Shown here: positions 9,651 through 11,509 of the stretch, one piece after another
How the letters are laid out: each line of letters starts with the position of its first letter
Position numbering within the stretch: position 1 is the first letter of the stretch
Virus record (IMG/VR): IMGVR_UViG_2609459834_000004
Length of the DNA: 12,229 nucleotides
Reading direction: 5' to 3' (one strand)
DNA from: a virus
Taxonomy: Duplodnaviria; Heunggongvirae; Uroviricota; Caudoviricetes
Notes under the pieces: generated by a model
The model's database searches: none
Seen by the model: the letters and a program-made list of their open reading frames with translations, nothing else
Told to the model about the DNA's origin: nothing
Translations under genes and position numbers: made by a program

Positions 9651-9759
9651 AACCCCACCTCGCAGACAAAGCGGGTGTAAATTGAGGGAATACTACGAAA
9701 CGTAACAGACTCGGAGTCAGTGAATAACTCAGGTATTGGGTTATCAGCTAATATCGAGA

Positions 9760-9795
9760 CTCAAAAAATGGAAAAACCCGCTCGACGGCGGGTTT
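9760..9795 (-). terminator. Rho-independent terminator on the minus strand, upstream of S
   Basis: Stem AAACCCGC / GCGGGTTT (plus 9774-9781 and 9788-9795, 6-nt loop). Read on the minus strand it is followed by TTTTTCCATTTTTT. On the plus strand it is preceded by A's, so it is directional. Confidence 0.5.
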
Positions 9796-10222
9796 AAGCT
9801 GTGTGACGAAGTAACCACTCTTAACAGCATAACCAATTTTTTACGTACGTAAACCACTAAATGATATTTGCGAGAATGCTACCGAGTATTGAAAACACCA
9901 CTACAAATACATAAGCAAATCCCAACAAATAACCAACAAATAATTTCCAGTGTTATTTTTAGCCGGTTTAAATTGAACCTTCAAATTATAGAGCACTTAT
10001 AAATAACAGCCGTTAATATAAATTGGCTAATAGATTTATTTTTATTCAGCAAAGAGCCATGAATAGGATTCGATAGAAAAAAGTTCAGATAAAAATAGAG
10101 ATCTACTTCACAAATCAAACGAGAAACCAAAACTTACATCTTGAAATAATCACATTGATTAGATGAATATTTATCGCGCAGTGACATCATTTTTTAATAA
10201 TAGTTCAAAAAAAGGGCTCACG

Positions 10223-11320
10223 ATGAAAAAATTAACAGTGGCAATTTCTGCTGTAGCTGCATCAGTACTGATGGCGATGTCTGCTCAGGCAGCTGAAATT
10301 TATAATAAAGACAGTAACAAGCTGGATCTGTACGGGAAAGTTAATGCTAAGCACTACTTCTCCTCTAATGATGCAGATGATGGTGATACTACTTATGCCC
10401 GTCTTGGCTTCAAAGGTGAAACCCAAATCAACGATCAACTGACTGGTTTCGGTCAGTGGGAATATGAATTCAAAGGCAACCGCGCTGAATCTCAAGGTTC
10501 CTCCAAAGATAAAACCCGTCTTGCCTTCGCTGGCCTGAAATTCGGTGACTACGGCTCCATCGATTACGGCCGTAACTACGGTGTAGCATACGACATCGGT
10601 GCGTGGACTGACGTCCTGCCAGAATTCGGTGGTGACACTTGGACTCAAACCGACGTGTTCATGACTCAACGTGCAACTGGTGTTGCAACCTATCGTAACA
10701 ACGACTTCTTTGGTCTGGTTGATGGTCTGAACTTTGCTGCTCAGTACCAAGGCAAAAACGATCGTAGCGATTTCGATAACTACACTGAAGGTAACGGTGA
10801 TGGCTTCGGTTTCTCTGCTACCTATGAATACGAAGGATTCGGTATCGGTGCAACTTATGCGAAATCTGATCGTACCGACACTCAAGTTAATGCAGGGAAA
10901 GTTCTTCCTGAAGTATTTGCTTCCGGTAAAAATGCAGAAGTTTGGGCCGCAGGTCTGAAATATGACGCTAACAACATTTACCTGGCCACTACCTATTCTG
11001 AAACCCAGAATATGACTGTATTTGCTGATCACTTCGTTGCTAATAAAGCCCAAAACTTCGAAGCTGTTGCACAATATCAGTTCGATTTCGGTCTGCGTCC
11101 GTCCGTTGCTTACCTGCAATCTAAAGGTAAGGATCTTGGAGTATGGGGCGATCAGGACTTAGTCAAATATGTTGATGTAGGTGCAACCTATTACTTCAAC
11201 AAAAATATGTCTACTTTCGTTGATTACAAAATCAACCTGCTTGACAAAAATGACTTCACTAAAGCACTCGGTGTAAGCACTGATGACATCGTTGCTGTAG
11301 GTCTGGTTTACCAGTTCTAA
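10223..11320 (+). CDS. nmpC: Outer-membrane general porin (NmpC / phage Lc type, OmpC family), intact
   Basis: Signal peptide [23 protein letters not shown], then mature [16 protein letters not shown]..., internal PEFGG motif and C-terminal ...VGLVYQF, all hallmarks of enterobacterial 16-strand porins. The ORF-track start at 10163 is an upstream extension; ATG at 10223 has an AAGGG RBS. Located between Q and S on the opposite strand, as nmpC is in DLP12. Confidence 0.92.
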
Positions 11321-11340
11321 TCTGATTACGAAAAAGATAT

Positions 11341-11380
11341 GTTGCGGGAGGCGTTGCCTCCCCAACATATAAGTGGCTCC
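11341..11380 (-). terminator. Long near-perfect palindrome with T-run on the minus strand: candidate tR'-like late-leader terminator
   Basis: Plus 11347-11380 ATATGTTGCGGGAGGCGTTGCCTCCCCAACATAT is an extended hairpin; on the minus strand it is followed by CTTTTT. It lies ~130-170 nt downstream of the Q stop, the spacing of pR'-tR' in lambdoid phages, and 20 nt past the porin stop. Confidence 0.45.
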
Positions 11381-11458
11381 CTCAAGCCACTTCCTTTAGA
11401 AGCACAACCTTGCTTCTAACTATATAAACCTTCTGTTATATATTACCCTTTATTTTTG

Positions 11459-11482
11459 GGGGCGTCTCAACGCCCCATTTTT
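11459..11482 (+). terminator. Rho-independent terminator on the plus strand (porin transcript)
   Basis: GC stem GGGGCGT / ACGCCCC with loop CTCA, followed by ATTTTTAATAACTTTT on the plus strand. On the minus strand it is followed by A-rich sequence, so it is directional. Confidence 0.55.
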
Positions 11483-11509
11483 AATAACTTTTAGTAAATA
11501 ATTGGCATA

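Follow-up and report, generated by a model that had tools for sequence, protein, structure and literature searches.

The window analyzed here is a 12,229-nucleotide stretch of a lambdoid prophage (IMG/VR record IMGVR_UViG_2609459834_000004), and our subject is the porin gene module within it. This module occupies the interval between the holin gene S and the antiterminator gene Q (9651-11509 is the entire S-Q interval, not the porin gene itself). The module is the nmpC/lc porin unit of a DLP12/PA-2-type lambdoid prophage, in intact form. Comparison with characterized late promoters makes it very probable that the module sits between Q and the late promoter pR', with the late transcript starting beyond the porin. 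An earlier sequence-only reading of this DNA had concluded that the late transcript must cross the entire porin gene and its promoter in the antisense direction, and had predicted mutual interference between the two units from their convergent layout. Neither conclusion is supported, because the pR' cassette was located at 9853-9763, past the porin, and the porin promoter PnmpC and pR' are divergent. The probable porin start (~10176) and the predicted pR' start (~9821) lie about 355 bp apart, in back-to-back orientation. Since the cassette lies between the porin and S, late transcription is predicted to start past the porin and head away from it, and the proposed interference thereby loses its basis. 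As judged from this arrangement, the porin gene converges on Q, where the early right operon ends, and the late operon runs divergently from it.

The probable late promoter cassette

The cassette is encoded on the minus strand between the porin upstream region and S, approximately 170 nt upstream of S. The putative pR' (9853-9826) consists of a -35 hexamer, TTTACG (9853-9848), a 16-nt spacer, and a -10 hexamer, TATGCT (9831-9826). It is followed by an initial transcribed region with the pause/qut-equivalent (9821-9796), beginning at or near A 9821 (AGAGTGGTTACTTCGTC...), and by a candidate tR' terminator (9795-9763; AAACCCGCCG-TCGA-GCGGGTTT and then TTCCATTTTTT). The 8-bp GC-rich stem at 9795-9774 and its T-rich tail form an intrinsic terminator before S, and the homologous hairpin of 933W (20726-20748) is the first terminator marked downstream of its pR'.

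The window cassette, TTTACG-16-TATGCT-GTTA-AGAGTGGTTACTTCGTCACAC...AAACCCGCCGTCGAGCGGGTTTTTCCATTTTTT, was compared with the sequence found right after the Q stop codon in H-19B, TTTACG-16-TATCAT-GATA-AGAGTGGTTACATTGCCACGC...AACCCGCCGATGCGCGGGTTTTTTT. The H-19B cassette, including the part AGAGTGGTTACATTGCC...AACCCGCCG..CGGGTTTTTTT, aligned with window positions 9853-9763, and pR' aligned also with Sakai Sp5, PhiR40_1, PA-2, and DLP12. In 933W and phi24B, the cassette coincides with the annotated pR', qut, and terminator directly after Q; the conserved hexamers of the window pR' fall on the pR' annotated in 933W. A search with the 121-nt cassette returned matches in 363 phage records. The 11-mer AGAGTGGTTAC occurs once in the window and was also present in PA-2, 434B, DLP12, a 100%-identical E. 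coli chromosome, PhiR40_1, and H-19B. Among seven porin modules, all 58 bases at 9796-9853 were invariant, and the adjacent segments were 83-99% identical. The segment 9853-9763 on the minus strand was the sole window sequence homologous to a characterized late promoter of this Q family.

The position of the start site within the cassette was taken from published mapping. In Sakai Sp5, a Shiga toxin (Stx) 2a prophage, differential RNA sequencing and Term-seq located PR' and an RNA of 258 nt with its 3' end at tR' (PMC7547250). To set the Sakai start site, 258 nt were counted backward from the terminator (uncertain by about 2 nt), and this count arrived at AAGAG of the cassette. With that start, H-19B and Sp5 show GCC at +15-17 and U at +25, which are published features of 82pR' along with a pause at +25 (PMC5001585). 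The Q-binding element of phage 82 lies between the -35 and -10 hexamers, and a Q dimer is believed to bind there (PMC4914094). A perfect 14-bp palindrome, TTTACGTACGTAAA, spans the -35 hexamer and the spacer of the window promoter (9853-9840), the palindrome of H-19B and 933W is TTTACGATCGTAAA, and the form TTTACG(TA/AT)CGTAAA is conserved across the cassettes. The palindrome at 9853-9840 is thus a likely candidate for the Q-binding element.

The cassette does not adjoin Q in the window: the porin module intervenes, and the distance from the Q stop is 1,656 bp (11510 to 9853). The cassette is likewise displaced from Q in DLP12, PA-2, and PhiR40_1. For DLP12, the regulatory region of the lysis operon was described as -121 to +650 of the start upstream of essD and as Q-controlled (PMC7918800). 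The window Q gene (11893-11510, minus strand; 127 aa) matched PF06530 (E 3.5e-53), and its product was identical in amino acid sequence to K-12 QuuD, shared approximately 80% of its first ~118 residues with H-19B Q, and distantly matched the Q21 structures 6jnx and 6p18 (E 7.6e-7). Each compared phage has a different C-terminal Q tail after the shared ...LEMD, indicating that the left junction of the porin slot lies inside the last Q codons.

The porin gene and its module

As the sequence-only reading had stated, a complete OmpC-family porin gene lies on the plus strand between Q and S (10223-11320). The program-listed open reading frame (ORF) runs from 10163 to 11320, and its extra length is only an upstream in-frame ATG; the true start is ATG 10223 (MKKLTVAIS...), and 365 codons lead to a TAA stop at 11318-11320. 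No frameshift or premature stop, which that reading had allowed it might have missed, was found in this frame. Pfam PF00267 (Porin_1) covered the protein at full length (1-337 of 337, E 4.7e-157, 523 bits versus a cutoff of 23.7). The NCBIfam model NF007841, the 'porin OmpC' subfamily, gave 530 bits versus a cutoff of 484, and the score was under the NCBIfam equivalog cutoffs for PhoE and OmpF. A 23-residue signal peptide (10223-10291), with its boundary adopted from the annotation of the PA-2 record (J02580), precedes the mature N-terminus AEIYNKD, and the protein ends in VGLVYQF. The closest solved structures were OmpC and OmpK36 (E about 1e-137), and PhoE and OmpF also matched the whole mature chain; from these matches, the product would be expected to form a 16-stranded trimeric beta-barrel.

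To compare the protein with its K-12 counterpart, NmpC was rebuilt by joining the two annotated fragments around the insertion sequence IS5. The window porin was identical to IS5-cured NmpC at 365 of 365 residues and to Lc of PA-2 at 361 of 365 (98.9%), bearing out the NmpC/Lc-like assignment made from the sequence. Identity to the K-12 paralogues was 68% (OmpN), 66% (OmpC), 65% (PhoE), and 62% (OmpF).

The module shows the traits of a moron: its own terminator, a deviating composition, absence from related phages, and a promoter known from the literature. Relatives that lack the porin cease to be homologous at 9666, which is 16 bp upstream of S, and at 11534, approximately 24 nt before the Q stop codon; the extent of the module, 9854-11533, was set by homology breaks. 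The AT-rich upstream region noted in the sequence-only reading was readily recovered, with a GC content of 0.30-0.34 (9801-10400) versus 0.51-0.58 in the head genes. The terminator noted there was also found, at 11459-11476 on the plus strand and followed by ATTTTT, but approximately 140 nt past the porin stop rather than directly after it.

Porin promoter, 3' untranslated region, and IpeX

The nmpC promoter was previously located within -199 to -1 of the ATG and is active in K-12; the transcript starts at a G, and the product from rapid amplification of cDNA ends (RACE) was a 1.4-kb nmpC/IS5 transcript (PMC11677980). The probable PnmpC in the window (10141-10176, plus strand) has a putative TTGAAA hexamer, an 18-nt spacer, and a putative GAATAT hexamer, with a probable start near G 10176, consistent with the published 5' RACE and deletion data. 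A generic promoter scan of the window picked up neither PnmpC nor pR'. Both are weak consensus matches and were therefore placed by homology and literature.

One CRP site annotated by the PA-2 depositors (J02580 feature 1363-1383) is identical in sequence in the window (10095-10115, minus strand). The other 'CRP site' of that record, CTGTGTGACGAAGTAACCACT, lies at 9799-9819, over the initial transcribed/pause region of pR' and about 400 bp from the porin ATG. If real, this site is more plausibly a control element of the late promoter than of the porin.

The porin stop codon is followed by a plus-strand region with four hairpins and the terminator (11321-11485). These 165 nt folded with a minimum free energy of -62.9 kcal/mol (z = -8.4 versus shuffles), and the intergenic region between nmpC and quuD in K-12/434B matches the region at 99.5% identity. 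In DLP12 and PA-2, the 167-nt small RNA (sRNA) IpeX is part of the porin transcript and lowers OmpC/OmpF (PMC12197685, PMC8065619); it is made from the porin promoter and processed from the porin transcript (PMC12197685, PMC8065619, PMC3333887). On the strength of this match in sequence and position, the porin 3' untranslated region (UTR) is identified as the IpeX region. An Rfam scan of the whole window (E <= 1) gave no match and so no family-model confirmation of IpeX. On the minus strand, a hairpin followed by CTTTTTC (11372-11332) is the complement of the first IpeX hairpin and a candidate terminator for unmodified transcription leaving Q; the minus-strand fold of 11400-11325 reached -34.8 kcal/mol (z -4.9). 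Opposite the 3' end of the porin, an antisense ORF of 69 aa (11159-11368, minus strand) corresponds to 'ORF1' of the PA-2 record. Lying on the complement of the porin and IpeX, it is most likely not a gene.

Prevalence and selection

The S-Q interval was covered to at least 80% in 2,465 of the 5,426 complete E. coli genomes (about 45%) and in 36 phage records. It was 100% identical to several E. coli chromosomes, and its nucleotide identity was 96.9% with the lc record of PA-2 and 99.6% with the 434B region, which derives from DLP12. As the sequence-only reading had stated, nmpC of K-12 DLP12 is disrupted by IS5; the insertion follows codon 346, and the equivalent site in the window is CTAA at 11259-11262. 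A 200-nt probe spanning the site showed it to be uninterrupted in most of the matching genomes (1,945/2,246), indicating that an intact porin is the rule and K-12 the exception. The intact copy in the window is therefore not special but represents the majority state in complete E. coli genomes.

Seven porin alleles from phage records (PA-2, mEp332, PhiR70_1, ev243, ev099, ev017, and the window) were compared, and all were intact. The ratio of nonsynonymous to synonymous substitution rates (dN/dS) was 0.08-0.12 among well-diverged pairs, with dS up to 0.5-0.7. Such values at this depth of divergence imply that selection on the porin protein has been long-term, and the phage-carried porin is under long-term purifying selection.

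The porin coding region also differed between modules much more than its flanks did: it was 84-87% identical at the nucleotide level (dS 0.5-0.7), with products of 360 versus 365 aa (L015-L018 versus the window), and the flanking promoter, pR', and IpeX/Q segments were 93-100% identical between the same modules. A diverged porin in a conserved frame suggests allelic exchange or old allele classes.

Alternative readings

In the lambda layout, Q is followed directly by pR', a pause element, and a terminator (10.1101/651190). If the window were organized in the same way, pR' would lie directly downstream of Q (11509 to ~11440) with tR' at 11372-11332, and the late transcript would indeed run antisense through IpeX, the porin, and its promoter. 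Such a layout would account for the minus-strand hairpin with CTTTTTC at 11372-11332 and is compatible with the weak hexamers TTGAGA-19-TAATAT and the TATA-rich sequence downstream of Q. The relative 1H12, moreover, has a promoter-like site and a terminator right after Q and then a convergent lipocalin gene. However, the promoter scan found no minus-strand site downstream of Q in the window, the best hexamers found by eye need a 19-nt spacer, and none of the pR' cassettes of this Q family is homologous to the region, whereas 9853-9763 has such homology. The hairpins there are explained on the plus strand by the IpeX 3' UTR, the invariance of 9853-9796 amid drifting flanks requires a function, and the published DLP12 lysis promoter constructs derive from upstream of essD (PMC7918800). 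A late promoter next to Q is, on this evidence, highly improbable. The specific candidate (TTGAGA-19-TAATAT plus the 11372-11332 hairpin) was dropped after comparison with H-19B and 933W. The 9-mer ATATAACAG, common to the window and 1H12 downstream of Q, most likely reflects chance, and its spacing is mismatched. It could also be argued that the porin module is an intact-looking but silent relic in its host, with its conservation owed to recent prophage spread and not to use. nmpC was termed a 'quiescent' porin gene in E. coli B in a title cited in PMC3333887, K-12 tolerates nmpC disruption without a phenotype (PMC11677980), and the present copy resides in an IS1-hit prophage. Recent spread is difficult to reconcile with a dN/dS of ~0.1 at dS up to 0.7 over alleles from phages deposited as complete genomes, and silence with the activity of PnmpC in K-12 (PMC11677980). 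The proportion of genomes with an uninterrupted IS5 site, given above, also argues against a relic, which we consider very unlikely. Lc is reportedly an abundant protein in PA-2 lysogens, according to Schnaitman and co-workers in the 1970s-80s.

Several observations weigh against a porin module placed between Q and pR' and in use by the lysogen. The pause-like hexamer of the window, TACTTC-GTC, is a poorer -10 match than TACATT-GCC of H-19B and Sp5 (the flanking AGAGTGGT is identical), and the spacing from the -10 hexamer to the start that follows from the published numbering is short (4 nt). The 3' end of the Stx-phage PR' RNA is at a second terminator 258 nt downstream and not at the homologue of 9795-9774 (Sp5 670-695), and the window has no counterpart of this second terminator or of the StxS segment. 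Start sites and terminators in the window were all assigned by homology, and the hairpin and T run by Q (11372-11332) may leave room for a second, unrelated promoter. As for use, the 'quiescent' label in that title implies that expression of the porin in the host is not guaranteed, and IS1 upstream of Q suggests a decaying or defective prophage. The lone hairpin after pR' could possibly relate to the low-level (basal) expression of the DLP12 lysis genes (PMC7918800).

Proposed mechanism

With pR' placed beyond the porin, the porin moron would consist of PnmpC, a 365-aa general porin of the OmpC family, and a structured 3' UTR that yields IpeX and carries its own terminator, the whole occupying a slot between the last Q codons and the -35 hexamer of pR'. 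In the lysogen, the module would be transcribed on its own. The porin would enter the outer membrane and IpeX would lower OmpC/OmpF, and together they may alter permeability and determine which phage receptors the cell surface displays. Late transcription from pR' (~9821, minus strand) would meet the terminator at 9795-9763 unless Q had modified the polymerase, and Q-modified polymerase would proceed through S-R-Rz and then the head genes. Q would thus act 1.7 kb away from its own gene, and the porin would not be crossed by the late transcript. Only read-through of the early right operon past Q would enter IpeX and the porin in the antisense direction, and polymerases leaving Q would first reach the hairpin at 11372-11332. 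Within this scheme, we infer the exact start sites, the Q-binding element, the efficiency of the terminators, and the expression of the porin in the host with its phenotype.

A possible insertion slot in related phages

Opposite-strand genes after Q were also found in relatives. In PhiR40_1, the same pR' cassette is separated from Q by an opposite-strand ORF of 148 aa (L006 3464-3910), for which Pfam gave no match. In 1H12 (L005 3302-3826) and IdasGreatGrand, a Blc-type lipocalin gene is convergent to Q, and these two phages have Q genes approximately 88% identical at the DNA level. The 82-type cassette was not found in the 8-kb loci examined for 1H12 and IdasGreatGrand. Right after Q in 1H12 (~3830-3990, minus strand), we observed TTGCTG-17-TAATGT, which resembles a promoter, together with a strong terminator, AGCCAGCC..GGCTGGTTTTTTTT, and IdasGreatGrand was similar. 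The 1H12 type may pair a different late-promoter type with a similar Q.

The contents of the putative slot are envelope proteins in two cases, the NmpC porin in the window and the Blc lipocalin in 1H12, and an unknown 148-aa ORF in PhiR40_1. A broader proposal is that the segment from the end of Q to the -35 hexamer of pR' is a dedicated slot in Q82/QuuD-type phages that is refilled with opposite-strand genes, and that the CRP-like site (9799-9819) at the back-to-back PnmpC/pR' links carbon status to late-promoter leakage into the lysis genes. We regard this proposal as unlikely; if the slot existed as described, its cargo would be kept out of the late transcript and would be convergent with the early right operon. 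Recurrent opposite-strand genes after Q are only a mildly new angle.

nmpC/lc, its prophage location, its disruption by IS5 in K-12, and IpeX are all already known from the literature of the 1980s-2000s, and the useful outcome of this analysis is the correction of the transcription layout. If the late promoter is not beside Q in this phage group, gene order alone does not reveal which morons fall within the Q-dependent transcript, a point that matters when predicting whether prophage cargo is co-induced with lysis (stx) or expressed only in the lysogen (porin).

Layout of the window and type of prophage

All phage late genes of the window are on the minus strand. They comprise genes for the holin S of the S21 (P21) type, which is the first late gene (9650-9435), a signal-arrest-release (SAR)-type lysozyme, that is, a SAR endolysin (9435-8938), Rz/Rz1 (8953-8480), an HNH endonuclease (7630-7280), the small (7163-6660) and large (6663-4930) terminase subunits, the portal (4782-3556), the prohead protease (3620-2961), and the capsid (2950-1721). 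The plus strand carries two genes, the porin and a bor/iss-family lipoprotein gene (8152-8448; PF06291). The latter sits between Rz and the packaging genes on the strand opposite to both, next to an AT-rich segment with few ORFs (7640-8100; GC 0.38-0.44); unlike the porin, this moron is located inside the late transcription unit.

The head genes are SfV-like (97%), of the SfV/HK97 type, and the part from Q to bor is DLP12/mEp332-like (98-99%). The whole window was found in no complete E. coli genome of the collection (best coverage 71%), indicating one more mosaic lambdoid prophage. One end of the window is an IS1 end within ylcG (12068-12229), 100% identical to the IS1 copy in locus L004. The insertion point is 175 bp upstream of the Q start, and homology to K-12 rusA-ylcG-quuD ends exactly at 12068. 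As read from this junction, IS1 cuts Q off from the early right operon in this copy, and the prophage is probably no longer fully inducible.

Comparison with known systems

The closest known system is nmpC of K-12 DLP12 (qsr'), in which the gene order is the same: rusA-ylcG-quuD, nmpC, and essD-rrrD-rzpD/rzoD-borD. The intergenic regions, with the pR' cassette and the IpeX region included, are 99-100% identical to those of the window. The two differ in that nmpC carries IS5 after codon 346 in K-12 and no IS5 in the window, that the window has SfV/HK97-type head genes in place of the DLP12 remnant, and that the window has IS1 in ylcG. The IpeX region of the window likewise lies directly 3' of the porin stop, extends ~165 nt to the terminator, and is highly structured, and no difference was detected between this region and the known sRNA.

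In PA-2 (J02580, 1986), lc has the same orientation, and the signal peptide and CRP sites marked by the depositors map onto the window; the differences are four amino acid substitutions and a 17-nt indel upstream of S. Schnaitman and colleagues are said to have found that PA-2 lysogens make Lc ('protein 2') and lose or reduce OmpC, the receptor of PA-2. The receptor change or superinfection exclusion proposed in the sequence-only reading is thus the classical interpretation of nmpC/lc, a long-published view of how the porin changes surface receptors, and represents prior knowledge rather than a new prediction. The OmpD porin of Salmonella and OmpC, OmpN, PhoE, and OmpF belong to the same Porin_1 family, but nmpC, unlike these, is phage-borne. 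nmpC has been treated as the E. coli counterpart of ompD, and its mRNA is a RybB target (PMC3333887). svsR (PMC12247714) was also considered and found to be unrelated.

The late promoter of the window resembles those of phage 82, H-19B, 933W, and Sp5, with which it has in common the -35 hexamer, the palindromic spacer, the -10 hexamer, AGAGTGGTTAC, and the first terminator hairpin. It differs from this type in its weaker pause hexamer and in having neither the second terminator nor the StxS sRNA segment. In these phages, the cassette abuts the Q stop and the morons (stx and tRNAs) follow downstream, inside the late transcript. In the window, by contrast, an insertion of 1.68 kb that carries the porin separates Q from the cassette.

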